From the UHGV virus genome UHGV-1351982: a stretch of 64,000 nucleotides of DNA; one strand, 5' to 3'. Origin of the DNA: a virus. A program made the translations under genes and the position numbers. The notes under the pieces were generated by a model. It was not told the origin of the DNA. It did not search any database and was given only the letters and a program-made list of their open reading frames with translations. Numbering within the stretch: the first letter of the stretch is position 1; each line of letters begins with the position of its first letter. Positions 6,215 to 58,705 of this stretch are shown here, one piece after another.

Positions 6215-7178
6215 TGTAAAAGACTTTATCAAACGTTGTCAAGAAGCGTACTACCAGGGAATGAGTCTTATTTCCGATGAAGAATATGATCGTCTGATTA
6301 AAAGATTCCCGTTAGAGGAAGAAATCGGGCCGAAAGGTGATATCCCTCATTTGTATCGTATGTATTCTTTACAGAAAGTCTATTACGATCGTGGTGATAA
6401 AGCTCCATTTAACCCATTAGGTCAGGTTGAAACTGATAAGTTAGATGGTTGTGCGATTTCTCTATTATATATTAATGGTGAATTTGTTCAAGCGTTAACT
6501 CGTGGTAACGGTATTCTAGGGAATGATGTAACGCATAACGTTAAGATGCTGAACATTCCTAAAACTATTTCCCAAAGAGTACCAACTCAAATCACTGGTG
6601 AAGTTCTCATTACTAAAGAAGTAGAGAACAAACGTAACTACGCTTCGGGTGCTATTAACCTGAAAGATAGTGATGATTTCATACAACGTATTGGTGAAGG
6701 TGGTTTAATCTTCGTTGCATATGGTATCCAGTGTTCAGCGGAAACAGTCGGTATTACAGAAGCCTATTTAAAAGATATGCTTTGGCTAGAGAATGAGAAC
6801 TTCTTGACAGTTGTTAATGTTCGTTCCTTTTTTAAATGGATTCCGACGGACGGTAAAGTTGTTCGTATTAACGACAACAATAAATTCTTCCGTGAAGGTT
6901 GGACTAATAAATTTCCTCGTGGTGCATTTGCTATTAAAGAGGATGAAGAAGGCGAAATTACCACACTTGTTAAAGTTGAATGGCAAGTAGGGGCTTCTGG
7001 TAAAGTAACTCCAGTTGGTTATTTCGAGCCGGTGATTATTGATGATGCCACAATTGTTAAAGCAACTCTTAATAACGTTGATTATATTAACGCTCTCGAT
7101 TTAGAGATCGGTTGCCAGATTCGAGTGATTCGTGCTGGTGGTGTAATCCCTTGTATAGTAGAGCGAGTATACGACTAA
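6198..7178 (+). CDS. NAD-dependent DNA ligase, adenylation-domain subunit (ligase subunit A)
   Basis: 326 aa; KxDG adenylation motif (ETDKLDGCAIS); followed by a separate ORF carrying the Zn-finger/BRCT part; split ligase as recalled for T5. Exact start (TTG 6198 or ATG 6207) uncertain. Confidence 0.8.
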   Translation: MQTMNNVKDFIKRCQEAYYQGMSLISDEEYDRLIKRFPLEEEIGPKGDIPHLYRMYSLQKVYYDRGDKAPFNPLGQVETDKLDGCAISLLYINGEFVQALTRGNGILGNDVTHNVKMLNIPKTISQRVPTQITGEVLITKEVENKRNYASGAINLKDSDDFIQRIGEGGLIFVAYGIQCSAETVGITEAYLKDMLWLENENFLTVVNVRSFFKWIPTDGKVVRINDNNKFFREGWTNKFPRGAFAIKEDEEGEITTLVKVEWQVGASGKVTPVGYFEPVIIDDATIVKATLNNVDYINALDLEIGCQIRVIRAGGVIPCIVERVYD

Positions 7179-44121: not shown

Positions 44122-45903
44122 TTAGGTTAGGCGTTGAACTGTTACACGTAGTCTTGGCAAGAAAACAGCTGCCGCTTCTGCAGCGTGAATGATAACACCC
44201 AACTCAACGTTGCCATTACCAAGGTTTTTAATAGTATAAATATATCCGTTCCTACGGAAAGCAAACTTATCAGGCCTACTAGCCCAAGTTTGTGTATAAC
44301 TATAGGAAGTTGTACTGTGATAAGGTACTAGATATCCAGGTGGCAGAGTAAGAATCTGGTGGAATACACCATCACCAGCTGTATAACTTTGTTGACGTCT
44401 ACCTTGTACCTGCCAAGCGCTACCGCCGTAAGTACGCACAGGCATTCCAGCAGTATTAAGATTACCCATAATAACTTCAGTAGTTAATATAACGGTAGAG
44501 TGAGCATTAGGTAATCCTAACCAAACAGTGGCCAAAGGTGTATAGAAGTCACCAGCACCAGGGTAGGAAGGAGTTATATCATCACCAACATAAGTACTTG
44601 CAACGTTGCCTGGAAATAACCTGAGGGGTACAGTACTAGGACTCCACACAGGTCCATGTTCATTACCGATGGAGTTGGTATTAGTATCTACATACCATTG
44701 TTTACCTACACCAAATTTATATAAGCTAATTTGAGAAGCTGCACCCCCATAGTTAACAGGAGACCACAACCCGCCATTACTAGAGCCGATAAATTCACAT
44801 CGTGCAGTATTATCACCAAAAACTCCGGTATACGCAGCGTTATTACCAACATACTCCATATCAGGGCGATAGCCTAAGTTTCCAAAGGCATTCTGGTTAA
44901 TGAATTTATATCCTGTATTTGGTAAACTAACACCTTTAATAGTAAAGTTAGATGGAGATATTAGGATATCTGAACCGGTAAATGGATTACCAGAAACTCC
45001 CATACTACCATTAGAATAGCGCAGATTTAGCACATACCAAATAACCTTAGTTGGCGTAACGTTATACCAGTCCTGTACATATACCTTTCTAGCAGACTGA
45101 GCAGCCATATTAGAAGTAGAACCTCTACAAACATATATTTTTTTTGGATATGCAGGAGATTGGTAAAGAACGTTTACGTTATCTGGTAGTACACCTTTCT
45201 TACCTGCAAAGCCACGAATATTAGAATTACAAACATAAAACCAATCATGGCCTCTACCAGCAGAACCAACAGGCGCCTGCCAGTTAGGTTCCCAATAATC
45301 TGCGTTACCACCATCTAAAGGAACAGTAGAGACACCAGTTGGAAAACCCATAAGACTCCAGGCTCTGGCAATGGCTTCACCAGCAGAAACACCACCAGGT
45401 CTAAAGATCTGGAAACCAGAGGACTGTAGTAAACTGCCTCCAGAACCTTGCCGAGCAATAGATTCCTCATGACCAAGACCACCATTATAGATATAGGTAC
45501 CATGAGCTAAACTATCACCGATCGCAAAAGCAGATGTTACAGATAATTCAGCACCAGCACGTGGTTGGTCTTCAAAGAATGATAAGAACTGGCCAACCTG
45601 AGATTGTGTACCATTAAGGAAACCCCTATGAGTACCATTTATCTCAATAGCAGTTAATATAACTCTACCAGGATCATTGGATTTAATGTTTATAATATCC
45701 CAAGGCATCTGAGTAACAAAGTACCCATTACCTGCATCACCTAGGGCAGCCTCATAAGTCCCATCAACTAGGACGAAGGGCATATCTGAGTGGAAGATAC
45801 TATTAGTATTTGGAGAGTAGTGCTGATTTATATCACCACCATTAGCAGCGTTTAGAGATAATACAGTTTTACCATCACTAAATTTTCCTGCGAAAAAACT
45901 CAT
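44122..45903 (-). CDS. receptor-binding tail protein (T5 pb5-like)
   Basis: 593 aa; Gly/Asn/Ser-rich; N-terminus MSFFAGK... resembles what I recall of T5 pb5; divergent from a lipoprotein gene, as for oad/llp in T5. Confidence 0.6.
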
Positions 45904-45927
45904 ACAATCTCCTTCTTTAAAAATGTA

Positions 45928-45959
45928 TTTGCTTAGATCCCTCTATTTTGCTATAATAT
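45928..45959 (+). promoter_or_regulatory. sigma70-type promoter for the lipoprotein gene (TTGCTT -35, TGCTATAAT -10)
   Basis: Conserved downstream box ATATTTATAAATTAAACAGAGGA; lies in the divergent region shared with the receptor-binding gene. Confidence 0.65.
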
Positions 45960-45986
45960 ATTTATAAATTAAACAGAGGAACGATT

Positions 45987-46253
45987 ATGAAAAAGTTACT
46001 AGCTATCGTAGTTGCAGCAGTAGTGTTGACTGGTTGTGTGCCAGCTCCCGAGCCATTTTGTAGGGCATATGTGAAGTCTTATGGTCATGTTGGTGAAGAA
46101 CACTACGCTTTAGATATTCGAGAAGCACGTACTGTGGGCTACCGATTCCCTAAAACTCAGTTACGCACTAAGTTTGGGTGGTGGGATTTGTCACAGTTTG
46201 ATCTCAAATATGGCGATTGCAAATTTAAACTAGAACAATCTGGTCACTTGTAA
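45987..46253 (+). CDS. llp: lipoprotein, Llp-like (candidate receptor-blocking / superinfection-exclusion protein)
   Basis: 88 aa; signal peptide with lipobox (AVVLTG-C); conserved early promoter upstream; divergent from receptor-binding gene. Confidence 0.7.
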   Translation: MKKLLAIVVAAVVLTGCVPAPEPFCRAYVKSYGHVGEEHYALDIREARTVGYRFPKTQLRTKFGWWDLSQFDLKYGDCKFKLEQSGHL

Positions 46254-46327
46254 TTAGTATAAAGTAAAAAGATCTCGAAGTAAACAAAAATTTTTATTTC
46301 TGGGATGAGGTACAGGTAGCAAACACA

Positions 46328-46642
46328 ATGCAAGATGAAGAAAAGTCCTTTCAGGAACCTGTTAACTTTGAAATAGATCCCAGGACTAAAGCAATACATG
46401 ATGCGATTAACGAAATCATTCAAGACGTCATAGAAGATACAATGGAAGATGTGATGGGAACATCCTTCTTACTAGAAGAATCCGGCTTCGATGAAGTAAT
46501 GGATCTTATCGGGACAGTCATAATGGTTCGTGCAATTGCTAGGATATTCCAAATACCAGGACTACAGGAGAAGCAAAGAGATGTCAGACGACAACAGAAG
46601 AAAGAACAGACGCGGGGAAGTGTACGAAAGTTGGATAAATAG
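46328..46642 (+). CDS. hypothetical acidic protein
   Basis: 104 aa ORF; overlaps the next small gene in another frame. Confidence 0.4.
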   Translation: MQDEEKSFQEPVNFEIDPRTKAIHDAINEIIQDVIEDTMEDVMGTSFLLEESGFDEVMDLIGTVIMVRAIARIFQIPGLQEKQRDVRRQQKKEQTRGSVRKLDK

Positions 46643-46715
46643 TTTCGGATTCGGGACTGTATTATTCTTTATCTTTGTACTCTTTTGGTTAGCGGCTATG
46701 GCGGGATGGTTATAA
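46581..46715 (+). CDS. small membrane protein
   Basis: ATG at 46581 after GGAGAAG inside track ORF 46530-46715; basic N-terminus then one hydrophobic helix. Confidence 0.4.
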   Translation: MSDDNRRKNRRGEVYESWINSFGFGTVLFFIFVLFWLAAMAGWL

Positions 46716-46819
46716 TGGAAGTAGTAATTATTGCTTTACTAGTTGTGGTACTTATCGGGCAGTGCATCTTAGACAACCACTTAGCTCGTATCGAACGTAA
46801 GCTGCGGGGAGACAAATAA
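46715..46819 (+). CDS. small membrane protein (34 aa)
   Basis: Not in track (below size cutoff); ATG overlaps upstream stop (TAATG); hydrophobic N-terminus MEVVIIALLVVVLIG. Confidence 0.4.
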   Translation: MEVVIIALLVVVLIGQCILDNHLARIERKLRGDK

Positions 46820-47013
46820 TGGATTGGTTAGGACTTATTACACTTGTAGTATGGCTTGTCTGGATTGTTGGATATATGACTTCACATCGTAACCGTATAC
46901 AGCGGCTAGAGGATAAAGTCACCCAGCTTAATATTAATATGGATAAGTTACTGGACTCCCAACGTAATGATCGGGCACGTATTCACCAACTTGAGAGGGA
47001 ATTAGATGTTTAG
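46819..47013 (+). CDS. small membrane protein
   Basis: 64 aa; start overlaps upstream stop (TAATG); N-terminal TM helix followed by a charged helical tail. Confidence 0.5.
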   Translation: MDWLGLITLVVWLVWIVGYMTSHRNRIQRLEDKVTQLNINMDKLLDSQRNDRARIHQLERELDV

Positions 47014-47233
47014 CTTTGTAGCTATCTTCATTATCGGGGTGCTTGCGGGAATCTTCGGAACACTCGGGGCTATTAACAAGCATCGTGAATACGTTGCGGG
47101 AGTATCGCGGGAGCTTTCGGAAAGGGAGCGGAAGTTTGCGGAGAAACGTGCGGAGTTTGAGCGAGAGTGGTCGGATGGATCTCGGGCGTCGCAGAGGAGG
47201 TTTCGGGCTGATTCCGTGAGTTCTCCTAAGTAG
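47006..47233 (+). CDS. small membrane protein
   Basis: 75 aa; N-terminal TM helix, Arg/Glu-rich tail; followed by strong terminator. Confidence 0.5.
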   Translation: MFSFVAIFIIGVLAGIFGTLGAINKHREYVAGVSRELSERERKFAEKRAEFEREWSDGSRASQRRFRADSVSSPK

Positions 47234-47340
47234 CGCTAATTTGACTTTTGCCAAATCTCATAAGATTACACATGAAGGTGTGCCCAGAGGTTCCCTAGAT
47301 GAGAATGAGTCTCATTACCGCCCCCTTACTTAGCAAGCTA

Positions 47341-47390
47341 ATAGTCACACCATGTTATCATTACACAGTGTGACTATTTTATTTTTAATT
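47341..47390 (+). terminator. intrinsic terminator after small-membrane-protein genes
   Basis: 10-bp stem ATAGTCACAC/GTGTGACTAT followed by TTTTATTTTT. Confidence 0.6.
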
Positions 47391-47391
47391 G

Positions 47392-48126
47392 TTAGGCAAC
47401 TTTTAATTTATCAATGAATTGTTGCGGTGTGGTACTATATTCCGCGCGTTCTTCCTCGGTCATACCTTCCCAACACATTTTTAAACGTTCGGCTAGGAAT
47501 TGATAATCGTTATCATCATCAAGCGATTCATCAATAAAGGTTTCACCGATCAATGTTACGCCGATTGATAGGATATCGTTAACGGCTTGAGCATCCAGCG
47601 TTTTAAATCCAGCACTTGCCGCCGCTGATAATACACCTTTATGATCATCAATCATTGTAAAATCAGCATTAGGATATAGCTGTTTAAACAGTTCAAAGTA
47701 ATAAGATTTATATACAGCGTCTTTACTGTGGTATATTTCGCTAACCTTATTTGCATCAAAGTATTTATGTAATGTATCGCGGGAAAATACGCGAATATTA
47801 CTATTTCCGCGCCCTCGCAAGCCTTGTTTGCGTAAATAAAAATAATCGCTTTTAGACATTAGGCGCGCGGTACAAATAATATTTAAAGTATTTGCATCAT
47901 TCATACATTGGCGCATATATTCAACCAATGGCAATAAAGAATCCTGCATAATTAAATCATGCTTGCAGGCTTCGCGGGAATATTTATTTAAATCTAAATT
48001 CCCATTATCATCAAAACAAGGCCCGACACGGTGCATTGAGTTAATGATTGTACCGTCTAAATCCCAAATCATAACGCGGGAAATATGCGGGAAAGTGCGG
48101 GTAATATTCATGTTGACTTGATTCAT
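47392..48126 (-). CDS. dmp: 5'-deoxyribonucleotidase, HAD-like (T5 Dmp-like)
   Basis: 244 aa; HAD motif I (VMIWDLDGTI); pre-early gene neighbourhood with A1/A2 homologues. Confidence 0.7.
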   Translation of the reverse strand: MNQVNMNITRTFPHISRVMIWDLDGTIINSMHRVGPCFDDNGNLDLNKYSREACKHDLIMQDSLLPLVEYMRQCMNDANTLNIICTARLMSKSDYFYLRKQGLRGRGNSNIRVFSRDTLHKYFDANKVSEIYHSKDAVYKSYYFELFKQLYPNADFTMIDDHKGVLSAAASAGFKTLDAQAVNDILSIGVTLIGETFIDESLDDDNDYQFLAERLKMCWEGMTEEERAEYSTTPQQFIDKLKVA

Positions 48127-48213
48127 TTGTTACATTCTCCATTTAAGGGATTTAGGTTAATTCAATCTTGCCAGCTAATTATATTGGATTAGCTGGCAAT
48201 GTTCAATTAACTA

Positions 48214-48606
48214 TTAATTAGTGAGGCCATACGCTAGCGCGTCACCAATAAAGCTAAGATCTTCACCATGTACGCTAGAACGAATCCCCGCGCAAGTGTA
48301 GACCATCGCGCTAGCTTCTGGATTGCAGACCGGACACGGCTTAACAACCGCAAACGCTAGACCGGATTTAAGCGCATCAATAATAATTGTTTGTACTGTT
48401 AAAGTATCAGCGTAAACACCTTTTGCTTTTGTATGGCTTGCCACTTTGCCGGTATCATAAGCAAAGGTAGTAACCTGCAAAACGTCGTTATAATTCAGCA
48501 AATCGAAATTAACTTGCCCCGCCTCGACGTGATAACGTTCGCCATTAGAATAAACTAGAACGATGGAAGAAGTAGCGCGGTCAAAAGGAATGCTTTGGTT
48601 TTTCAT
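48214..48606 (-). CDS. hypothetical protein
   Basis: 130 aa ORF in pre-early operon. Confidence 0.5.
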   Translation of the reverse strand: MKNQSIPFDRATSSIVLVYSNGERYHVEAGQVNFDLLNYNDVLQVTTFAYDTGKVASHTKAKGVYADTLTVQTIIIDALKSGLAFAVVKPCPVCNPEASAMVYTCAGIRSSVHGEDLSFIGDALAYGLTN

Positions 48607-48638
48607 GTTTATGACTCCAGATTATTTAATTACGGGAT

Positions 48639-48917
48639 TTATTGAAAAAATACATTTAAAGATAAATCAGTTTTACGAAAATATGTTTCGTCGCCGTCTT
48701 TCCTTTCTTGATTAAGGTAATCGCCTGTCATTACCTGAATAGAATCTTTTCCGAAAAAGATCATATTTTCGCCAATATTACTATCCCATACGGCGTACAT
48801 TCCCGCGTACATTCCACGGGTAACTAAATAAACGCAACTATCAAAAGACATTTCAGACCATGCAATATCTTCTAAACAATTGCTATCAGGGATAGATATA
48901 TTAATTTTACTAGCCAT
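48639..48917 (-). CDS. hypothetical protein
   Basis: 92 aa ORF in pre-early operon. Confidence 0.5.
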   Translation of the reverse strand: MASKINISIPDSNCLEDIAWSEMSFDSCVYLVTRGMYAGMYAVWDSNIGENMIFFGKDSIQVMTGDYLNQERKDGDETYFRKTDLSLNVFFQ

Positions 48918-48969
48918 TTAATAAACCTTTTATTAATGGCGGTATATTTCAACCGCCGATTAAATTTAA

Positions 48970-50634
48970 TTATGCAAAGAATTTACCGTTCTTAAAGTCA
49001 ATCAATGTTCTTTGACCGTTTGCATAGGTAATTAAATGCGTTTGCGTCCAGCTTGACGCGCCCACGTTGTAGCCCATATCAAGGGAACCAGCAACGCCAG
49101 CGGTATAAACGCCGCCGTAAATGCTAGCCGTATGAGTATGACCAGTGTTAAGGCGTCCCAACTTTTTAAACTGCTTAGGATTGCCCCGACTGCCGTTAAT
49201 GCCATTGTGACCATGTACGCCGCATTCAATGCCAGCGATTTTAAACGACTGGTCAGTAGTCAGGAAAATAGCGTTAAATTCGCAACCTGCGACACTACGC
49301 AAGGCGTAATCTAGCACGTTAAAAGTATCATCCTTTTCAGCAATAGCGGCGTATATAGCAGCGTTTAGACGGTGATACAATTCCGCGTTTGCGGGATCGT
49401 CTTTAATGTTAGCGTTACGATCATCTAACCAGCGGGATAAAGCTAAATCATGGTTAGATTCAACAATGATTGTTTGAGAGAAATCACGCTCCATTGATTC
49501 TAATACGCGTCCAGTGTCGATAAGATCATCTAGAACCTTGTCACGTCCTGCGGCGTACTGTTTAGCAAGGAATACACCACTAGCGCGGTTGTGATGGTTA
49601 CGCGATGTAAAATCATGCACATCATGAATAAACTGATATTTAGGCTTGAGAATATCAAGCAAGCTGTTTTCACTAGCCCATGAAGCAACGGCGCATTCAT
49701 CATCTAATTTTTCGGCGTGAATATCACCATATTGCAAGCCTAGAACATGATCGGACGTTTCAAAACATCCGGTAGGCATAGCGCAAACATTCAAATCATA
49801 AAACATTCCGCTTTCGTCCATCGTTTCAAGCTGACGAACAAAAAATTCGCCGTCGTCGTCAAATTCTACCAGCAAAGCGCCGAAATTATGTAAAGCCTCG
49901 GCCTTTTGTCCTGCCTTTTGCTGGATATAGTTTTTAAGCGTAGCCGTTCCGGTTGAATACATACGGCGCACTACTTCACCTTTTAACGCTGGCACACTTT
50001 CAGCGGTAATTTTAGCGTGACCAATTGCCAGACCTTCAATATTTAAAGCCGTGGCGGTTTCTGCGAATCCTGAAAGCGGATAGTCTGCCGTTGGTAACAC
50101 GTTAATTTCAGCCATGAAAGCAAAACGGCGATTATTTAAAAATACGTTTTTCTCGCAAATATATTTATTAAATGCGGGATCGTATTTAATGCCTTCGTTA
50201 CCTTCTCCATTCTGGAAGCCGTTTTTATTGTAAATGAATTTACTAACCAGCAATTCACCGCCGATATATTCAGCGAATTTTTCCAGACTTGCTAAAAAGT
50301 TTTTATGCGGGAAAGTATTATTTTGAATCGACGTTAGAATAAAACGGCGACCGGATTTAACTTCCCACTGTTCCACGGTACTAGAAACAATTCCCGCCGC
50401 TTCGGGGCGATCATCATTTTTAATCGCCTTTTCAGCTTTTGCCGCTTTCGGTTTTGCTGGCTTATTTGCTTCCAACCAATCGCAAATTGCGGTTGAATGT
50501 TTCGTTGTATCGTAAACAGCTTTTGATATATCGTCGCAAACTTCCAGCTTAGTAGCGCGTAAACGTTTACCGTAGAAATTAAAATCAGCGGCAAGTTTAA
50601 CGATCTGGGCTTGTTTTTCTGCGGAAATATTCAT
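48970..50634 (-). CDS. A1: A1-like pre-early protein, metallophosphoesterase fold
   Basis: 554 aa (T5 A1 recalled as ~556 aa); calcineurin-type motifs (SDH, GDIH, ESNHD, GHTHT). Confidence 0.8.
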   Translation of the reverse strand: MNISAEKQAQIVKLAADFNFYGKRLRATKLEVCDDISKAVYDTTKHSTAICDWLEANKPAKPKAAKAEKAIKNDDRPEAAGIVSSTVEQWEVKSGRRFILTSIQNNTFPHKNFLASLEKFAEYIGGELLVSKFIYNKNGFQNGEGNEGIKYDPAFNKYICEKNVFLNNRRFAFMAEINVLPTADYPLSGFAETATALNIEGLAIGHAKITAESVPALKGEVVRRMYSTGTATLKNYIQQKAGQKAEALHNFGALLVEFDDDGEFFVRQLETMDESGMFYDLNVCAMPTGCFETSDHVLGLQYGDIHAEKLDDECAVASWASENSLLDILKPKYQFIHDVHDFTSRNHHNRASGVFLAKQYAAGRDKVLDDLIDTGRVLESMERDFSQTIIVESNHDLALSRWLDDRNANIKDDPANAELYHRLNAAIYAAIAEKDDTFNVLDYALRSVAGCEFNAIFLTTDQSFKIAGIECGVHGHNGINGSRGNPKQFKKLGRLNTGHTHTASIYGGVYTAGVAGSLDMGYNVGASSWTQTHLITYANGQRTLIDFKNGKFFA

Positions 50635-50743
50635 AACTAATTCAACTCCTATAAAGGGATAAAGATTAAAGCTGGCAATATTGCCAAATATAACGCCTTG
50701 CCTGAAGTGAGGACAATTTAAAAGGCGTTATAATTTGCAACAT

Positions 50744-50968
50744 TTAATTAATCGGCATTAAACTAGAACAAAAGCCAAATACAATGCCAATTGTAAGAAA
50801 GATAATTGACATATATTTTTGAATGTTCGCGTTTTTGCGGAAATTATTTGCGGCGTAAACGTTATTAATTCCAATTATTGCCAGAATTGACCGCGTATAA
50901 TTCAGAATAAAAGCGGCGGCAATAATAAATAAACCTAAAATAAACGCTTCGCTAGGATAAAAGATCAA
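50744..50968 (-). CDS. small membrane protein
   Basis: 74 aa; two hydrophobic segments. Confidence 0.45.
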   Translation of the reverse strand: MIFYPSEAFILGLFIIAAAFILNYTRSILAIIGINNVYAANNFRKNANIQKYMSIIFLTIGIVFGFCSSLMPIN

Positions 50969-51018
50969 GATTATTCTCCTTTAAGGGATAGCGGGGAATA
51001 TTCCCCGCTAATTAAAAT

Positions 51019-51435
51019 TTATTCACCTGCGGCCTGTTTTACTTCCTCCGCTACGCCTAACAATTGCGCTACGGCGTCCAGCGTTTCCAGTTTTGCACTT
51101 TCCAGACTTGCCAAATCGTCGGCATCTTTTACAATGCCGCTATCAATGGCATGTTTAGCAATGACGCGCACATAGTGAGCTTTACGGACAGAGCTACCGC
51201 CGCCAACTTTACGCGGTTTATCGCTTTTCTGATAGGCTTTTGCACTGGCCAATTTAGAACGTACAGAAACAGGGGACGCAGCGCCAACGGCGGCGGCAAT
51301 TTCTTTTAAGCCGTCACTATTCGCAAACTCAATCCCGCTTTTAGCAACCATTTCAGAGTACATAGAAACAGCTTTTTCGGTGTTTTCTTCGTTCCAAGAG
51401 AATTTTGCGGTTTTTTCGGTTTTAACGTTAGACAT
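51019..51435 (-). CDS. A2: A2-like pre-early protein (putative DNA-binding)
   Basis: 138 aa; immediately upstream of A1 homologue in transcript order; size consistent with T5 A2. Confidence 0.6.
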   Translation of the reverse strand: MSNVKTEKTAKFSWNEENTEKAVSMYSEMVAKSGIEFANSDGLKEIAAAVGAASPVSVRSKLASAKAYQKSDKPRKVGGGSSVRKAHYVRVIAKHAIDSGIVKDADDLASLESAKLETLDAVAQLLGVAEEVKQAAGE

Positions 51436-51535
51436 AATTTAATACTCCATTCAATTATTAATTAAGGGATTATGATTAACTAATGTTAATCCATATATTC
51501 CCCATATTTCAGGGGAATATAAAAGTAACACTAAT

Positions 51536-51787
51536 TTATGCTATAGCTTGCCATTTATCATCTTTCTGAATGATCTTTACAACGTCGCCAGATTTAACGC
51601 GAACATTATAAATAGGCTTGCTGTTGTTACTGCGTTCCGTTTCCGCATAGACCGCTTCAATCTTATCAAAGGGATCAAGCGCCGCACCTTTGATACGTTC
51701 GGCTTTTCCGGTTAATTCATCAGTTTTAGTTACAAAAGGAATGAAAACAGATTGACCTACTTTCGGCGCGGTAATAACGTTTTGCAT
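51536..51787 (-). CDS. hypothetical protein
   Basis: 83 aa ORF in pre-early operon. Confidence 0.5.
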   Translation of the reverse strand: MQNVITAPKVGQSVFIPFVTKTDELTGKAERIKGAALDPFDKIEAVYAETERSNNSKPIYNVRVKSGDVVKIIQKDDKWQAIA

Positions 51788-51898
51788 TTTTAATACTCCG
51801 GTTTATTGGGGATTATTCCACAATAGCGCCTCGATACTTTGAAACGCTATTAGATTATAATCCGCTAGGAGTTAGCCTAAACATTACCATTATCCAAA

Positions 51899-51944
51899 TT
51901 TTTAAAGAGCAGTTACTACGGGGAACATCTTAAAACCTATCGGC
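51899..51944. repeat. composite repeat A+B upstream-flanking a small basic ORF
   Basis: 13-mer TTTTTAAAGAGCA (A) plus 25-mer GGGGAACATCTTAAAACCTATCGGC (B); partner at 52204-52243 has B inverted and A direct. Confidence 0.55.
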
Positions 51945-51951
51945 TAGCGTG

Positions 51952-52170
51952 TCAAGCGTTTTTTAAACTTTTTTCGATTTGATGTGAGTTATATAAATCA
52001 ATCATTATATTACGCCACACCATTTCCAGACCTTGCTGCTTACCTTTCTTGTATTGCTTGAATCTGTATTTTACAGATCGTTGCGCTACTGTCAACAAAT
52101 TTTTTGTTCTGCTATCCAGTGGGCTAGCAGGTTTTGCACTAATCACTAAAGCGTTTTTTGATTTGATCAT
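51952..52170 (-). CDS. small basic protein (possible DNA-binding)
   Basis: 72 aa, Lys/Arg-rich; flanked by 25-bp inverted repeats. Confidence 0.45.
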   Translation of the reverse strand: MIKSKNALVISAKPASPLDSRTKNLLTVAQRSVKYRFKQYKKGKQQGLEMVWRNIMIDLYNSHQIEKSLKNA

Positions 52171-52203
52171 TATCGTCGATTCCTTATAATGTATAAGTTT
52201 ACC

Positions 52204-52243
52204 GCCGATAGGCTTTAAGATGTTCCCTAGTTTTTAAAGAGCA
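52204..52243. repeat. composite repeat B'(inverted)+A
   Basis: GCCGATAGGCTTTAAGATGTTCCC is the reverse complement of B (2 mismatches), followed by a direct copy of TTTTTAAAGAGCA. Confidence 0.55.
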
Positions 52244-52560
52244 TGGCGGTAAACTTCCCCGCCGTGTAATCTTGCGTTTCGTTTCCGTCCCGCCGTCCTA
52301 CGAGATAAATAATAGGGGATTCCCGAAAATGGCGCAACCTTATTTTTGTAAAGAAACGTAAAGAAAACCACTACCCGCACCACGGCAAGCGGCGCACTAA
52401 GTTTAATGAAACAGGCGCGCGAATAACACTAAAACAACCACTTTAGCAAGTAATTTTTTCATTTATATCTGCTCTAGGGTACTTGACAAAATCTAAAATC
52501 CTCGTGGTGAGGTTTTCTCGGTGTACCCCTTATGATTGCCTATCTTTTCCTTTGATGCGC

Positions 52561-52587
52561 TTAGAATCGCTTACAGAGCGTTTTAGA
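52561..52587. repeat. ~27-bp direct repeat, copy 1 (TTAGAATCGCTTACAGAGCGTTTTAGA)
   Basis: Near-identical copy at 56302-56329. Confidence 0.6.
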
Positions 52588-52799
52588 CCCTGTTAATAAC
52601 TTATACAAAAAGCAAAAATGAAATTTAATGAGTTATCCACTTGATTTTTCAAAAAAGTATTTTCTGCTGTTATTTTTCATTGACAAATAAGTTTAGACGT
52701 GCATTGATTGGTTAGCAGACTAACAATCGCTAGGATAATAATCACGCTGGTGGATTGTAACAGCCGAAACAGTTAGCAGACTATTAATACTCTAAAAAC

Positions 52800-52834
52800 C
52801 TATTAGCCAACTAACTATTTCATATTATATAATA
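52800..52834 (+). promoter_or_regulatory. orphan promoter-like element (TATAAT at 52828-52833) in a non-coding region
   Basis: Matches the conserved -10 plus downstream box (TATAATATACTTATAAATTAAAGAGA) but no ORF follows for >400 bp; -35 weak. Confidence 0.35.
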
Positions 52835-52904
52835 TACTTATAAATTAAAGAGAAATAATAACTATAAGAAACTATCGGCTAAGTGAGAACCACTATCATT
52901 TAGG

Positions 52905-52974
52905 TTATTCACAAAGTTATCCACAGCACAAAATAACTTGACGCAATAGGCGACGTTTTGGCGACTTATCCACA
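52905..52974. promoter_or_regulatory. DnaA-box cluster (TTATTCACA 52905-13, TTATCCACA 52917-25, TTATCCACA 52966-74)
   Basis: Two perfect and one near-consensus 9-mer matching the E. coli DnaA box TTATCCACA, inside an ~1 kb non-coding region. Confidence 0.6.
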
Positions 52975-52994
52975 GACTTATGTACAGGTTATCC

Positions 52995-53014
52995 TACTGT
53001 ATAAATATACAGGG
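52995..53014. promoter_or_regulatory. LexA-type SOS-box-like palindrome (TACTGTATAAATATACAGGG)
   Basis: CTGT-N8-ACAG with AT-rich core, next to the DnaA boxes. Confidence 0.5.
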
Positions 53015-53261
53015 TAGAATGGTAGCAGTAACAACCGCAATCAAATTTAAGCGGCCTAGAACGCGCTACACGGCGTTTTCTCACTGCTACCCTTATTATA
53101 ATAAAGCCTTGTGTACGCTTACAGAGAGCTAGAAATAGAAAACGCGCGGTTATCATAAAAACAGGCAGTAGGCAAGGAATAAAAAACCTTTTCTTTTTTC
53201 TTGCCCATAGTGAACAAATATCTATATCATTCACTCACCGATTAACGAGGGAGGCAAAGAA

Positions 53262-54281
53262 ATGTCTACTGTAAGAATTGCAGTGCCAGCAAACGCAACT
53301 ATTGTTAAAGGTAGTTTGCGCAACCTGCTAGATGGTAGTAGTGCGGCAAGTATTCAGCACACCGCTACTATTGTAGAAAAGATTCACGATGAAATTTTAG
53401 ACAATAATGATACTCATTATTCAGTTGATGATTTCACGCTATTACTAGACCAGACAAGGGCGCTAGTAATTTTCAACCGTGATTATCACATTTTCCGTAA
53501 TAGTCGGGGAACTGATATTGATTTTATCATTGTTGGTTATAGTGAGTCTCATAGTGGTTACATTGCGCGATTATATAACGTGCAAGAAAAGGAGCAGGTA
53601 ACAGCAACAAAAGTAAATAATATCCGGCTGGATAGTGTCGGATCGTTATTAAATAGTATCTGGCGTGAATTATCCTCAAGCTATAAAGGTGCGGATAGTG
53701 ACGCAATCGAAACAACTGGCGTATTGTGTTTTGAAAAGTCAACGGGTAACATGTTGATCCCTAGCGATTATTTAGGGTATGGGAATGAATCAAACGTTGC
53801 AAACGCTGGATTTACACTTTTCCCGCTTGACAATGTAACAAAACAGGCTGTAAACTCTCAAACTTCAAGCGCAATTGCGCAAACTACTGAAAATAAAGGA
53901 AATAACACTATGTCTAAAGTAACCGCTATCGTTGCCGCTAATAAATCCGCCGCCGCTACCGCTGCAAAACTGGAAGCGGGTAAAGTAGCACTAACTCAGC
54001 TTACAAAAGTAGCGGCTAAAGCCCTGCCTTCTGGTATGGCTGGCATGTTCGCTAAACAGTATTTAGATACTCCGGTCGGGCGCGTTGTTGTTGCCAACTT
54101 GTTAAATCTGGCAATCGAACAATACGCACCGAATAACCAGAAAGCGCGAATTGTTGCTAAAGCCGCAATGGATGCCGCAATGCTGGAAGTGGTACAGAGT
54201 TTCAATATTTCTGAAATGATCGACAAGGCAATCGAGGGAATCAACATTGATGCTTTGACTGCTAATATTTCAGAAGAGTAA
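53262..54281 (+). CDS. hypothetical pre-early protein
   Basis: 339 aa; GAGGGAGG RBS; Ala-rich C-terminal half; intrinsic terminator downstream. Confidence 0.6.
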   Translation: MSTVRIAVPANATIVKGSLRNLLDGSSAASIQHTATIVEKIHDEILDNNDTHYSVDDFTLLLDQTRALVIFNRDYHIFRNSRGTDIDFIIVGYSESHSGYIARLYNVQEKEQVTATKVNNIRLDSVGSLLNSIWRELSSSYKGADSDAIETTGVLCFEKSTGNMLIPSDYLGYGNESNVANAGFTLFPLDNVTKQAVNSQTSSAIAQTTENKGNNTMSKVTAIVAANKSAAATAAKLEAGKVALTQLTKVAAKALPSGMAGMFAKQYLDTPVGRVVVANLLNLAIEQYAPNNQKARIVAKAAMDAAMLEVVQSFNISEMIDKAIEGINIDALTANISEE

Positions 54282-54289
54282 TAATAACA

Positions 54290-54325
54290 AGCGGGAATTA
54301 ATTTTCCCGTTTTCTTCCCTTTTAG
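54290..54325 (+). terminator. intrinsic terminator
   Basis: Hairpin CGGGAA-TTAATT-TTCCCG followed by TTTTCTTCCCTTTT. Confidence 0.65.
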
Positions 54326-54339
54326 TTAGGAGACTAATT

Positions 54340-54831
54340 ATGTTTGGTAACAGAAATTATGGCAACCCTATTGAAGCACGATCCCTTAATCATGACGCAA
54401 TTGTATTCACTCATGCGTCTACCGGTTATTGTGGATCAGATGGGAATGATTATCATTTCGTTCCCGCTGGTGACGATATTGATGATCTATGTAATGAGGC
54501 AGGTTATGAAAATGCTTGCTCTTATGGTCTAGAAGTTATTGAAGTAGACGACGGCGAATATGAGGATAATGATAATATTGAATGCTCCGCTTATCATTAT
54601 CAGTTAAGTGAATCAGGTTGTTATATTGGCGGCGGCGATCCTATTAATTCCATCACTGAAATAATTATTGAAAATGGTGGCGTTTCGCTGAATGGTAACA
54701 AGGCGTTACTATATGCAAACCGATTAAAGCAACTTGTATATATTCCTGATGGGAAAGAATGGGAAGAATACAACGTTCTAATTGCAGAATTGAAAAGCTG
54801 TTTCGGCGTGGAAGTGGTAGAAATAGTCTAA
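54340..54831 (+). CDS. strongly acidic protein (candidate DNA mimic / anti-restriction)
   Basis: 163 aa; roughly 30 Asp+Glu against about 7 Lys+Arg, several Cys; AGGAG RBS; own terminator. Confidence 0.6.
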   Translation: MFGNRNYGNPIEARSLNHDAIVFTHASTGYCGSDGNDYHFVPAGDDIDDLCNEAGYENACSYGLEVIEVDDGEYEDNDNIECSAYHYQLSESGCYIGGGDPINSITEIIIENGGVSLNGNKALLYANRLKQLVYIPDGKEWEEYNVLIAELKSCFGVEVVEIV

Positions 54832-54845
54832 TGTAAAGTTTTGTA

Positions 54846-54875
54846 AAGGTCGCCCTAATCGGCGGCCTTTTTTGT
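54846..54875 (+). terminator. intrinsic terminator
   Basis: Hairpin GGTCGCC-CTAAT-CGGCGGCC followed by TTTTTTG. Confidence 0.65.
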
Positions 54876-54938
54876 TATAATGCCTTTACACCGAAACGGT
54901 GGATTGAAAATTTTCCCTGATTTCTAGGAGGCGTTAAA

Positions 54939-55169
54939 ATGGTTGCTTTCTCTTCTTCTGACTCCCTTTTCACTGGTAAAGGTTGGGTATCTAATCGCTG
55001 GATCATTGATCAAATGGTTTCGGAATTTGGGATTGGTAAAACTTATGTTACCATTCAGGCGCTTTATGATAATGACAAGATTGACCAGCAAACCGCCGGA
55101 TTTTTGCTGGATACGCTGAAAGCGGAACATTGCACTAAAAAGCAAGCGGCAAAAATTGTTTTAATGTAA
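54939..55169 (+). CDS. hypothetical protein
   Basis: 76 aa; TAGGAGG RBS 7 nt upstream. Confidence 0.55.
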   Translation: MVAFSSSDSLFTGKGWVSNRWIIDQMVSEFGIGKTYVTIQALYDNDKIDQQTAGFLLDTLKAEHCTKKQAAKIVLM

Positions 55170-55216
55170 TTAATAACGGGGCGTTACTTTCGCCCCTCAT
55201 TCCCTTACTAGGAGTT

Positions 55217-55435
55217 ATGCAAATGTTAAAGAATGTTTCCCTTGCCCGTTCTAAAGGTTTTAAGCTGGTGGATGTTAACACCTTCGAGCGTCCAGATTGT
55301 AAAATCGAATATGTAGCACGCAACAAAAACCCTTTCCGTGTTACAGAAAAGAAATTTGACAAGCGCGGCAATTTGATAGCCGAAACGGTTAAACACTTTG
55401 CTACTTTTTACGCTGCTTTTCGTGGGGTATTATGA
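55217..55435 (+). CDS. hypothetical protein
   Basis: 72 aa; TAGGAG RBS. Confidence 0.55.
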   Translation: MQMLKNVSLARSKGFKLVDVNTFERPDCKIEYVARNKNPFRVTEKKFDKRGNLIAETVKHFATFYAAFRGVL

Positions 55436-55544
55436 GATCCTTATATATTGCTCTAGCGTTTGCTACTGTTGGCGTTGTATGCTCATTCGCCGCATTTGTT
55501 TTAAAAATGTACATGATATTTTCCCAGCTTTAGGAGGTTGACAA

Positions 55545-55892
55545 ATGGTAATTTATGAGGGCAATCGTTTTGTTGCTAATTGCCGTCCGGCATTGTTAGC
55601 AAACTATTTAAATCAGCTTTCACCAGTTTATAAAGGCGTGGTTAATATCTATGAAGGCAAAGCACATTATAAAATTTCTGCCGTTGTCGCTCGCGAGCTT
55701 GCCTTTCAGTTTCTTACTTTTAACTCATGCGATATTCAGGTTATGGGTGAGCCATTAGTCGCAGAAAATGAAAATGAATTTATTGACATTTTCCGCAAAG
55801 TATGTACAGAGCGCCTGATTATGAAGGGCGCGTATATTCAATCAACCGCTGAAAGTATTGAAACAGCGTTTCGAAAAATTGTAAATGAATAG
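55545..55892 (+). CDS. hypothetical protein
   Basis: 115 aa; TAGGAGG RBS. Confidence 0.55.
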   Translation: MVIYEGNRFVANCRPALLANYLNQLSPVYKGVVNIYEGKAHYKISAVVARELAFQFLTFNSCDIQVMGEPLVAENENEFIDIFRKVCTERLIMKGAYIQSTAESIETAFRKIVNE

Positions 55893-56018
55893 CTGGTGGC
55901 GAAAAACACAAAGCCATAAATCTAATAATACCGCTGGGAAACATTCCCAGCGTTTACGATTTGGTAATGGCTGCGTAATGATATTGATAATCATCCTCAT
56001 TCTAGGAGCGATGGCGTT

Positions 56019-56213
56019 ATGAGTGATAAAATTGTTGTAACTAAAACTACTGTTACCGTTGATACTTTCTTTGTGCCTGATACGCTGGAAAATCGGCAAT
56101 TAGTCGAGCGTGGCGATTATGACAAAGTGATATATGATGGGGATGGATACTATCAACATTTGGTAGACTCCTACGGCGAAAGCGAAAAGATCACACATCG
56201 ACTACCAGACTAA
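56019..56213 (+). CDS. hypothetical protein
   Basis: 64 aa; TAGGAG RBS; terminator downstream. Confidence 0.5.
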   Translation: MSDKIVVTKTTVTVDTFFVPDTLENRQLVERGDYDKVIYDGDGYYQHLVDSYGESEKITHRLPD

Positions 56214-56216
56214 TAA

Positions 56217-56250
56217 TAACGGGGCGCAACTATCGGCCCCGTCTTTTCTG
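56217..56250 (+). terminator. intrinsic terminator closing the pre-early + cassette
   Basis: Hairpin ACGGGGC...GCCCCGT followed by CTTTTCT. Confidence 0.55.
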
Positions 56251-56301
56251 GCCTTCCTCAAATTTCCCCTTATTAAAATACCTCTTCCAAAAATAAACGC
56301 G

Positions 56302-56329
56302 TTAGAATGCGTTACAGAGCGTTTTAGAG
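56302..56329. repeat. ~27-bp direct repeat, copy 2
   Basis: TTAGAATGCGTTACAGAGCGTTTTAGA, matching 52561-52587. Confidence 0.6.
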
Positions 56330-56358
56330 CTATATTAGAGTTATTCACTACGCAGGAA

Positions 56359-56378
56359 TACTGTATAAATATACAGTA
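56359..56378. promoter_or_regulatory. LexA-type SOS-box-like palindrome (TACTGTATAAATATACAGTA)
   Basis: Near-perfect match to the LexA consensus TACTGTATATATATACAGTA; second copy, in inverted module. Confidence 0.55.
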
Positions 56379-56398
56379 GAATAATCTGTTGATAAGTC

Positions 56399-56468
56399 TG
56401 TGGATAACGCCTCAAAATCGCTAGGATTTTGTCAAGTCAAATCGTGCTGTTAATAAACCTGTGGATAA
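56399..56468. promoter_or_regulatory. DnaA boxes in inverse orientation (TGTGGATAA at 56399-56407 and 56460-56468)
   Basis: Two perfect reverse-complement DnaA 9-mers; with the LexA-like box they form an inverted copy of the 52.9-53.0 kb module. Confidence 0.6.
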
Positions 56469-56499
56469 CTTAAATAACAGTGTTTCTCACTTCGCTTTG

Positions 56500-56640
56500 T
56501 AAATGCGAGTCATTCTCATTATCATTCGCGTTTCCCTTCCTAAATGCAAATCATTCTCATTCGTATTCCGGTAGTCAAATGATAACTATTCTCATTCGCA
56601 TTCAACTTCTCAAATGCGAATCAATCTCATTATCATTCGC
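56500..56640. repeat. four tandem ~30-bp dyad-symmetric iteron-like repeats
   Basis: AAATGC(G/A)A(G/A)TCATTCTCATT(ATCATTCGC) units at about 56500, 56542, 56575 and 56610, each with an internal GCGA..TCATTCGC inverted repeat. Confidence 0.6.
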
Positions 56641-56680
56641 ATTTCGGCAGGCAGGGCATTTTCTATTTGCCCTGCGCTTT

Positions 56681-57281
56681 TGTGCAAATCCGACATTTGC
56701 CCCCACGGATTACGTGCCAGCGTGTATGTGCGAATCCGACAATTTTTGGTAGTGTGCAAATCCGACCCGAAATATTTTTATAGTGTGCGAATCCGACAAT
56801 GAATTTCCCTAAAAACTCCAGCAATCTCGAACTGCGATCGAATCCTGTGGGATATGCGCAAATCCGACATGAGTTTGCTAGGAGACAGATTTATGGTTTC
56901 AGGAATATTTTTGTGACTTCGATGAGAGGGTGTGTAATTGTGTGAGTTTGGGGAGAAGTGCGAATCCGATGAGGTTTTGGGAGGAACTATGAGAGGAGCA
57001 GCGGTGTTGGTGCTTTAGCACCGATTTGCTGCGTTTTTGGGGATAATGTGAGATGTTTTGGGATAATTGGGCGTGGGGTGAGATAAAGTGAAATTTTATT
57101 AGTTAAATGGGGCAAAATCGCTTGACAAGTGAAAATTCCTGTGTCCCTAAAAACTCAGGCAATCATGGGCCTTCGGCCCGAAATAATGCTGCTATTTTCA
57201 GGAGATTATGTGCTCATGAAAACTTAGGCAATTGTGCAAATCCGACCAGTTTTTAAACTTATATCAGTGTGCAAATCCGAT
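56681..57281. repeat. eight dispersed copies of the 13-mer GTGCRAATCCGA(C/T)
   Basis: Copies at about 56681, 56727, 56754, 56784, 56855, 56958, 57232 and 57266, in a region with no convincing ORF. Confidence 0.65.
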
Positions 57282-57817
57282 AGCAATTTCCAGAAATGTG
57301 TTTTCAAAAAATGTTGTCTAGAAATAACCGCCCTCCCCATAACCGCCCTGTATTAACCGCCTATTGCTGGAGTTTCTAGGAACATGAAAACCGCCTGAGT
57401 TAATGGGAGTTTTCCTAGAAACTTAGGAGTCTAGAAGAAAGTGTTGTGCCATCCTAGCAGATGAGCGGCAACAGGTGTATCATCTTGAACGTTAATTTAT
57501 CTATTTAACAGTATTAGTTTTTATATAAGTATAAGATCCCCAAGGGTTCTCATATAGAGCTTTGCCCCCGCCAGAAGGTCTCGTGATGTTTCTAGTAATC
57601 TTTATTAAATTACTTGTTGACTTGTCCTGTCGCTCCGTAACCTACGCTACAAGTCAGTAATTTAAGATTCCTGAACCACCACACCTTCTGTGTGGCAACT
57701 CTAAATGGTTAATTCTATTAACTCATAGAGTTATGATAACATACATTTAGCTATCTGTCAACGAGAGTTTGTATCTGAGTCTCGGTACAGGTATTGTGCA
57801 CCGAGACATGCAGGATC

Positions 57818-58705
57818 TTACAGTAACTCTTGGTATGCTTTTTGGTACGCCTCAGTGTTAGTAGGTGTATCTTTTGCAATAGTTATTAATTCATCTGTGA
57901 TCTGAATATTCGTATTATAACGTGAGTGGAACTCGTCAGGAATTTCTAGATACCTATTGATGAATGCTGCAGCAAGCGGTGAAGCTATACCCATTTCTAG
58001 AACCCATCCAACTTGTTTCTCAAACTTCAAATAAGGAGATTCTGTTTGAATAGTAGAAGTTTTGGTTTCCTTGATTTCTTTTATTGGTAGGATTGGATTT
58101 TCATAACGTGCTTCTTCAGGGATAGCAGATCTACGTTCTTTATAAATATAAGTCTCTAGATCCGATGCTTTAGACCCTGAATATACTGCAAAGACACTTG
58201 CTTTACCTTGTGATGCTCTAATTGGTAAATAGCAATTTGGATAACTTCTCAATGCATCGTGGAAAGGGCTTCCAGAATATTGATAACGCTCTCCATATAA
58301 ATCATCAATGTTCATTCGTTCATCTTCGAAGATATGGAATGCACTAAATGAAGGTAGTGTGAAATATTCTGTTTCTAGCGCGCGAATTAAGAATCGATGA
58401 GCATATGCACTAATCTTAATAACTGTGTAGGGTTTTTCTCCTTCTTTGAGAGCGTTACCCTTAGATGTAACTTGATAACGTTTTCCGAAGAACTCTACTA
58501 AACGCTTCTCGTTTAAAGAGAGTGTAGAGTATAAACGTCCGTTCAGTCCTAGCAAGGTATCAAACATAAATGCTAGCTTATCTTTTTCTTCTTGGGTTAG
58601 TTCAGGAAATGGTAGGATCTTAGCATTTGGAATGTTATTTGTTTCCTTTGCCTTTCCTTTGCCAGCATTTTGTCTCAGTTTGTCTTTAAAATTATAAGTA
58701 CCCAT
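57818..58705 (-). CDS. hypothetical early protein
   Basis: 295 aa ORF; hairpin just downstream of stop. Confidence 0.55.
   Translation of the reverse strand: MGTYNFKDKLRQNAGKGKAKETNNIPNAKILPFPELTQEEKDKLAFMFDTLLGLNGRLYSTLSLNEKRLVEFFGKRYQVTSKGNALKEGEKPYTVIKISAYAHRFLIRALETEYFTLPSFSAFHIFEDERMNIDDLYGERYQYSGSPFHDALRSYPNCYLPIRASQGKASVFAVYSGSKASDLETYIYKERRSAIPEEARYENPILPIKEIKETKTSTIQTESPYLKFEKQVGWVLEMGIASPLAAAFINRYLEIPDEFHSRYNTNIQITDELITIAKDTPTNTEAYQKAYQELL

Follow-up and report, generated by a model that had tools for sequence, protein, structure and literature searches.

In phage T5 and the related phage Bas33, the pre-early genes are expressed in the pause between first-step and second-step DNA transfer, and eight of those of T5, T5.001-T5.008, are located in the left terminal repeat (NC_005859, 124-4918). 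A1 and A2 are both essential in T5, A1 is needed for host DNA degradation during infection and is sufficient for it when expressed alone, and T5 lacking dmp shows a delayed eclipse and latency and a virulence that is about halved (bioRxiv 10.64898/2026.04.02.716235). Only dmp, A1, A2 and T5p007 are common to all T5-like phages (Davison, bioRxiv 10.1101/866236). We compared with these systems the region at 47392-52170 of a 64,000-nucleotide (nt) stretch of the virus genome UHGV-1351982 (the whole stretch is called the window below), where a first-pass annotation had placed a pre-early dmp/A1/A2 cluster of a T5-like phage. Its synteny with T5.001-T5.008 upholds that placement, and the region is very probably the leftward pre-early (first-step-transfer, FST) transcription unit of a T5-like Epseptimavirus.

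The region contains eight open reading frames (ORFs), all on the minus strand, and the limits, sizes and order that had been given for dmp, A1, A2 and five small ORFs of 130, 92, 74, 83 and 72 amino acids (aa) were found to be exact. From first to last, the gene order is hdi, 007, A2, 005, A1, the slot gene w92, 002 and dmp. The first gene, hdi (51952..52170, 72 aa), is the T5.008 orthologue with 68% aa identity and the DUF7416 domain, and it is followed by the T5.007 orthologue (51536..51787, 83 aa, 80% aa identity, Pfam DUF7177), by A2 (51019..51435, 138 aa, predicted DNA-binding, the T5.006 orthologue with 88% aa identity), and, at the T5.005 position, by a two-transmembrane (2-TM) membrane protein of 74 aa with a TTG start (50744..50968, 34% aa identity, E=9e-13). 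Next are A1 (48970..50634, 554 aa, a predicted metallophosphatase/DNase and the T5.004 orthologue), w92, which encodes an acidic 92-aa protein in the slot between A1 and 002 (48639..48917, phrog_18783, no T5.003 match), the T5.002 orthologue (48214..48606, 130 aa, 72% aa identity by BLASTP), and finally dmp (47392..48126, 244 aa, the T5.001 orthologue with 90% aa identity to T5 over 244/244 aa). The intergenic gaps are 32-164 nt, and a ribosome-binding site of the GGAG/AGGA type is located upstream of seven of the eight genes, the 92-aa ORF having a weak AAAGG only.

A megablast search with positions 47000-52600 matched 474 phage records, among which the top match was Salmonella phage BD13 (Epseptimavirus, Markadamsvirinae, Demerecviridae), which is 95.4% identical in nt across all 5.6 kb. 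The eight proteins each have 96-100% identity to those of BD13_12 to BD13_19 (100% for the 92-aa gene), and BD13 and about 85 other deposited Epseptimavirus genomes differ from the window by scattered substitutions only; in BD13-type records the small genes are labelled hypothetical and the 2-TM gene wrongly bears the label 'A1 protein precursor'. The collinear gene set dmp-002-(003 slot)-A1-005-A2-007-hdi was found on one strand, and its order is kept in 45 related loci. In comparison to T5, the order, strand and spacing are the same and the aa identity is 68-91% for dmp, 002, A1, A2, 007 and hdi, while the differences are that the A1-002 slot holds an apparently unrelated 92-aa gene in place of T5.003, that the 2-TM protein is so distant from T5.005, and that T5.009 and hegG are absent, with 1.1 kb of mostly non-coding DNA after hdi. 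PHROG families were assigned to all eight proteins, at E<=6.5e-33 for all small ORFs, among which only the 83-aa and 72-aa products matched Pfam (DUF7177 and DUF7416); NCBIfam gave no match for any of the eight proteins and an Rfam scan of 46000-58000 found no family. The cluster is a textbook T5 host-takeover module, already known and represented by nearly identical deposited proteins, and one more T5-like genome with this module offers nothing new; the comparative genomics of T5-like terminal repeats which the first-pass annotation recommended is likewise already in the literature (Davison, bioRxiv 10.1101/866236; Annor et al. 2026). A new insight might be gained here only from the 92-aa gene and its variable slot.

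To determine how the five small ORFs evolve, the ratio of nonsynonymous to synonymous substitution rates (dN/dS) was calculated by the Nei-Gojobori method against the window, using 37 IMG/VR loci around A1, six GenBank phages with the 92-aa gene, T5 and BD13, and the medians were taken over 7-45 related loci per gene. The results showed a median dN/dS of 0.10 for the 130-aa ORF, 0.10 for the 92-aa ORF (from few substitutions), 0.29 for the 74-aa ORF, 0.14 for the 83-aa ORF and 0.20 for the 72-aa ORF, in comparison to 0.08 for dmp, 0.055 for A1 and 0.08 for A2, and the synonymous changes numbered in the hundreds for four of the five small-ORF families. These values indicate that all five small ORFs are genuine protein-coding genes under purifying selection. 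That they might instead have arisen by chance or be non-coding spacer DNA separating the three known genes could be argued from their shortness, from their lack of a functional Pfam domain and from the dispensability of the T5 orthologues in the laboratory; against this stand the dN/dS values, the PHROG assignments, the upstream ribosome-binding sites and the presence, at this position in distant phages, of homologues with 30-35% identity. Such an explanation is refuted by the data on selection and conservation, and we give it practically no credence. The distant homologues have conserved columns, and one of the two failings that the first-pass annotation had itself named as fatal to its proposal, that the small ORFs are not conserved, does not apply. 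Ten pre-early proteins of Bas33, a related phage, have been seen by mass spectrometry (PMC13250531).

Based on T5 orthology, A1, as a metallophosphatase-type enzyme, would destroy the host DNA, A1 and the DNA-binding A2 would let the remaining genome enter, Dmp would turn the released deoxynucleoside monophosphates into nucleosides, and Hdi, the product of the 72-aa ORF, would destabilise FtsZ rings and halt division. The 130-, 92-, 74- and 83-aa proteins would most likely be accessory, fine-tuning the timing of infection or acting in particular hosts or defence backgrounds. Among the three known proteins, Dmp belongs to phrog_415 (E=4e-56) and carries the HAD motif I (DxDxT) as DLDGT at residues 22-26, the score against the Pfam HAD model being below the cut-off (E=0.059). 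A1 belongs to phrog_1745 (E=1e-243) and is 91% identical to its T5 orthologue over 554/556 aa; the motifs GDIHAE(303), HDVHDF(337), SNHD(393), GVHGH(472) and GHTH(498), which were read by eye from the sequence, follow the order predicted for a calcineurin-like metallophosphoesterase, while no Pfam Metallophos match was found at E<=0.1 and no PDB sequence match at E<=1. A2 belongs to phrog_1725 (E=6e-50), and by analogy with T5 it would be the DNA-binding protein for second-step transfer.

The first-pass annotation regarded all five small ORFs as unassigned, which does not hold for the 72-aa ORF. Its product matches Pfam PF24188/DUF7416 above the cut-off (E=3e-39), and the alignment with T5 Hdi shows a near-invariant core at residues 18-59, an N-terminus that is three residues longer in the window protein (a 3-column gap) and a divergent C-terminal tail. 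The two share the DUF7416 family and the first position in the cluster, the promoter embedded in T5 hdi has a putative counterpart in the window gene, and the 72-aa ORF is accordingly annotated as the hdi orthologue, a predicted division inhibitor acting on FtsZ. T5.008 was renamed Hdi; the protein is toxic and, both when induced and in the course of infection, makes FtsZ rings unstable (Mahata et al. 2023, PMC10714956). T5 Hdi blocks host division, resistance to it maps to FtsZ G191 and F268, and its toxicity is relieved by the FtsZ F268V substitution or by substitutions at G191; it also inhibits the growth of Salmonella and gives T5 a competitive advantage (PMC10714956). Functionally, Hdi is analogous to Gp0.4 of T7.

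For 002, 005 and 007, the label of unassigned stands, as the literature search found no paper giving a function to 002, 003, 005 or 007. The first-pass annotation's main idea was that the small ORFs encode additional toxins for host shut-off or takeover, which arrest macromolecular synthesis, and its proposed toxicity screen has in effect been published twice for T5, in independent arabinose-induced screens covering three E. coli strains. When T5.002, T5.003, T5.005, T5.007, T5.008, T5.009 and T5.011-T5.017 were expressed singly, toxicity was seen for 008, 011 and 015 only (Mahata et al. 2021, PMC8201957), and when all 17 T5 pre-early genes were expressed, dmp, A1, hdi, hegG, 011, 013 and 015 were toxic (Annor et al. 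2026, bioRxiv 10.64898/2026.04.02.716235). The idea gains from Hdi, a toxic takeover factor of 72 aa acting on FtsZ, and from the toxic pre-early genes 011, 013, 015 and hegG outside the region, and it loses from the fact that T5.002, T5.003, T5.005 and T5.007 were non-toxic in both screens. Viable phage were obtained after deletion of 002, 005 and 007, singly and together, and after deletion of dmp-002-003 as a block (bioRxiv 10.64898/2026.04.02.716235). The single 002, 005 and 007 mutants showed a 5-min latency delay and a burst about 40% larger, which was significant for the 002 deletion only, and host DNA degradation was normal in mutants without 002, 005 and 007, A1 alone accounting for it (bioRxiv 10.64898/2026.04.02.716235). 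Being non-toxic and dispensable, 002, 005 and 007 do not fit a role in further host shut-off, which the published screens largely refute for them, and we consider the toxin explanation very unlikely for the small ORFs in general. An accessory role, with effects on timing or in particular hosts, remains the preferred reading for these genes.

The 83-aa protein matches PF23801/DUF7177 over 83/83 positions (E=6e-44) and is basic, with a mass of 9.2 kDa and an isoelectric point (pI) of 9.0. Its structure model is a small SH3-like barrel, with NusG/Spt5 KOW domains and UvrD/PcrA Tudor domains among its weak structural neighbours; no confident structural analogue was found for the 002 and 007 models, a BFVD search returned uncharacterised phage proteins only, and PDB sequence searches with the 130-, 92- and 83-aa proteins gave nothing meaningful. 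We weighed whether this T5.007 orthologue could be the pre-early polypeptide of about 11 kDa which co-purifies with RNA polymerase and A1, and could help to switch off pre-early promoters. Such an RNA polymerase-bound pre-early protein was described in the 1970s-80s and never tied to a gene (PMC7472727). The size and charge of 007, its place among only four FST genes shared by every T5-like phage, and the modelled barrel, with weak neighbours that bind RNA polymerase, would be compatible with that identity. The extra bands on RNA polymerase at 3-25 min after T5 infection were, however, A1, pb8 and gp026 only (PMC7472727), the phenotype of the 007 deletion is very mild, and pre-early ORFs of 9-11 kDa other than 007 match the size just as well, so that this identification is regarded as unlikely.

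The 74-aa product had been called a two-TM membrane protein, and the hydropathy scan agreed, with hydrophobic segments at about 1-34 and 49-74 and a basic loop between them. It belongs to phrog_4820 (E=6.5e-33) and combines homology with a two-TM architecture at the A2-A1 position, T5.005 being likewise annotated with two TM domains. Among close relatives this gene occurs in at least four divergent allele classes, with about 99/66/46/34% aa identity, in comparison to more than 85% aa identity for the flanking A1 and A2 in the same relatives, and its dN/dS of 0.29 is the highest in the cluster.

The remaining small gene, w92, encodes a protein of 10.6 kDa with a pI of 4.2. BLASTP of the 92-aa ORF against T5.003 gave E=1.2, which is no detectable homology, and hhalign between the w92 and T5.003 profiles gave E=0.049 and then E=0.02, the second being collinear over 84 columns, at a probability of at most 2.3%; the assignment of the 92-aa ORF as a T5.003 orthologue was rejected on these values. 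The published toxicity screens consequently do not cover the 92-aa gene. In profile-profile comparisons among the w92, T5.003 and 85-aa families no pair was ever significant (E=0.02-0.15, probability <=2.3%), and on these alignments common ancestry of the slot families is neither claimed nor excluded. T5.003 itself occurs in less than 15% of Demerecviridae (Annor et al. 2026, bioRxiv 10.64898/2026.04.02.716235).

A survey of the slot, from the A1 stop to the 002 start in 40 loci, distinguished five states. The slot is empty, with a gap of 50-73 bp, in 10 loci; it holds the T5.003 family (92 aa) in 7 loci, an 85/96-aa family in 15 loci and, in 5 loci, a 169-aa ORF which is a putative HNH-type homing endonuclease according to its sequence and the annotations of other records; the w92 family is found in the window and BD13. 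The putative HNH loci are IMG/VR L003, L005, L013, L014 and L022, at about 6239-6754 (4488-4997 in L005), and a homing endonuclease in the slot could drive cassette exchange there. In phage STWB21 the slot contains, directly upstream of its w92 gene, an 86-aa ORF (L040, 3428-3979), and in a 113-kb T5-like contig an ORF of the 85-aa family stands in tandem with a gene of the w92 family (L046, 4747-5273), which suggests that two small genes may have occupied the ancestral slot.

By tblastn, w92 was found in 86 of the about 474 matching phage records, nearly all of them Salmonella or Escherichia Epseptimaviruses. A word-indexed search of 5.8 billion proteins returned seven w92 clusters only, all with at least 76% identity, and a search of 1.84 billion representatives with a hidden Markov model (HMM) added four full-length w92-like proteins of 89-94 aa, which are 32-35% identical by alignment and 30-33% by BLASTP. 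Two of these distant homologues (P0119, P0122) were traced to contigs and lie in the same slot of divergent T5-like contigs. The 113-kb contig, in which A1, dmp and A2 are 74%, 54% and 53-55% identical to those of the window, has the order A1, 85-aa gene, w92-like gene, 134-aa gene and dmp, and the second divergent contig has the order A1, w92-like gene and 134-aa gene; the 134-aa ORF at the 002 position of the 113-kb contig gave no BLASTP match to the 130-aa protein at E<=0.01. These searches indicate that the w92 family is small but old and has been patchily retained in the operon. Three further HMM matches to long proteins with many weak stretches (P0116, P0117 and P0120) were rejected as repeat artefacts: two of them are highly repetitive in the Pfam scan (Flg_new and HCBP_related repeats), the third has a visible tandem repeat of about 71 aa with no domain passing alone, and all three gather spurious families. 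The IMG/VR scan with the 92-aa protein gave no confirmed locus.

The w92 gene is also unusually uniform. It is at least 99% identical in nt to the window in 63 of the 86 records, in comparison to at most 97.2% nt identity in 223 records for the 130-aa gene, which is only 32 nt away, and in individual phages the synonymous divergence (dS) of w92 is 0-0.02, in comparison to 0.12-0.45 for the flanking A1 and 002. Since divergent w92 alleles are also found (90% aa identity, dS 0.26-0.43), the homogeneity is explained by a recent spread of an allele rather than by constraint at the nucleotide level, and the pattern points to one w92 allele having spread recently among Epseptimaviruses by recombination. 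An embedded RNA element behind the nucleotide conservation is not supported, since the folding of the w92 mRNA is only slightly better than that of shuffled versions (z=-2.37), and it is unnecessary given the divergent alleles.

These properties bear on a further explanation, an anti-defence role having also been raised by the first-pass annotation, that the small ORFs, the slot gene of 92 aa above all and perhaps also 002 and 007, are counter-defence proteins against host nucleases or immune systems, with an effect only in hosts that carry the matching defence and hence an apparent dispensability in laboratory strains. Variable, patchy and recombining slots with small proteins are typical of accessory anti-defence loci, and the A1-002 slot is variable and patchy, holds small proteins such as the acidic w92 product, and bears the mark of a recent recombinational sweep. 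The pre-early timing, before most of the genome has entered, would suit such a role, as would the fact that protection against restriction, RecBCD and CRISPR is set up in that pause by unidentified FST functions; the small genes are under purifying selection and yet dispensable and non-toxic. In addition, T5p007 has been proposed as a candidate restriction-insensitivity gene (Davison, bioRxiv 10.1101/866236). On the other hand, Pfam, PDB, NCBIfam and structure comparisons gave no homology or confident fold match to known anti-defence proteins, Epseptimaviruses have been reported to be without the broad nuclease insensitivity of Tequintaviruses, and no experiment ties these genes to any defence system. 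We therefore hold the counter-defence explanation as a tentative possibility. Its narrower form is somewhat more doubtful, namely that the A1-002 slot is an exchangeable counter-defence locus, that the 92-aa protein, along with the 85-aa and T5.003 families, would inhibit a host nuclease or immune sensor in the FST pause, and that the allele spread would reflect recent selection by such a defence. The w92 protein resembles T7 Ocr and the ArdA-type DNA mimics in general traits only, being small, acidic, of the earliest gene class, patchy and horizontally exchanged; no sequence similarity to Ocr/ArdA-type inhibitors was found, and the likeness is a lead with no claim of membership.

With regard to transcription, a sigma-70 promoter-like site on the minus strand inside hdi (52068..52095, TTGACA-16-TAAAAT, 11/12 consensus positions) falls in 65 nt that share 81.5% identity with P_H22 as annotated in T5, and is the putative counterpart of that promoter. 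Another promoter-like site on this strand is located at the 3' end of hdi, upstream of 007 and near the position of T5 P_D/E20 (51927..51955, TTGACA-17-TAAGAT, 10/12); it is a consensus match only, as the aligned part of P_D/E20 (51645-51825) falls short of the site, and the P_D/E20 feature in T5 partly overlies hdi. One more minus-strand site, again a consensus match only, is present in the 87-nt gap before dmp (48178..48206, TTGAAC-17-TATAAT, 10/12). No convincing intrinsic terminator was found within the cluster. The arrangement is consistent with a single operon, in agreement with what Annor et al. assumed for T5.

Several points weigh against reading the region as a T5-type pre-early unit with the functions set out above. 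Every function is carried over from T5, a Tequintavirus, to a phage of a different genus, and would hold only as far as that analogy does. The general Pfam Metallophos and HAD models are below threshold for A1 and Dmp, and the enzyme classes of these two proteins thus rest on the motifs read by eye, on T5 orthology and on the literature. The 2-TM protein shares only about a third of its residues with T5.005, and the 92-aa gene is without an orthologue among the genes screened in T5. Finally, the single operon is deduced from gene orientation and consensus promoters, and the promoter-like site before dmp suggests that there may be internal starts.

The cluster is located inside a long direct terminal repeat, beside the left genome end, according to the alignment with EscoHU1. 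Similarity to the left terminal repeat annotated in that phage ends near 47282, about 110 bp beyond the dmp stop, and the physical genome end should therefore lie near this position. In T5, dmp begins 124 bp from the end of the genome, in comparison to about 110 bp between the window dmp and the repeat edge. The left end of the repeat adjoins a late region at 44122-46253, which encodes a receptor-binding protein of 593 aa on the minus strand and an 88-aa lipoprotein of the llp type. As these late genes are directly left of the repeat edge, the window stems from an assembly that is circularly permuted or has its repeats collapsed, with the terminal repeat placed after the right-hand unique region.

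Some additional features were observed in the neighbouring DNA. Between llp and the repeat boundary, at 46328-47233 on the plus strand, there are four packed short ORFs (104, 44, 64 and 75 aa), several of them hydrophobic, which correspond to hypothetical proteins in BD13 and its relatives. A perfect 9-bp hairpin (TAGTCACAC ... GTGTGACTA) with a 17-nt loop is located at 47342-47376 on the minus strand, 16 nt past the dmp stop; it has no T-run behind it and may belong to Davison's Repeat Region 1 near the genome end. On the other side of the cluster, about 1.1 kb of mostly non-coding DNA (52171-53261) separates hdi from a divergently transcribed homologue of T5.011 (339 aa, 53262-54281), a gene which is toxic in T5, and 53216-53255 is 92.5% identical to the T5 promoter upstream of 011. 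An inverted repeat of 135 nt with 75% complementarity has its arms at 52878-53012 and 56361-56495, 3.3 kb apart, and each arm contains two perfect DnaA boxes (TTATCCACA), located at 52917 and 52966 on the plus strand and at 56399 and 56460 on the minus strand, the number in the window being 4 observed in comparison to 0.78 expected. This inverted repeat matches the IRC-spacer-IRD / IRD'-spacer-IRC' DnaA-box structures which were described around the T5 injection stop signal (Davison, bioRxiv 10.1101/866236).

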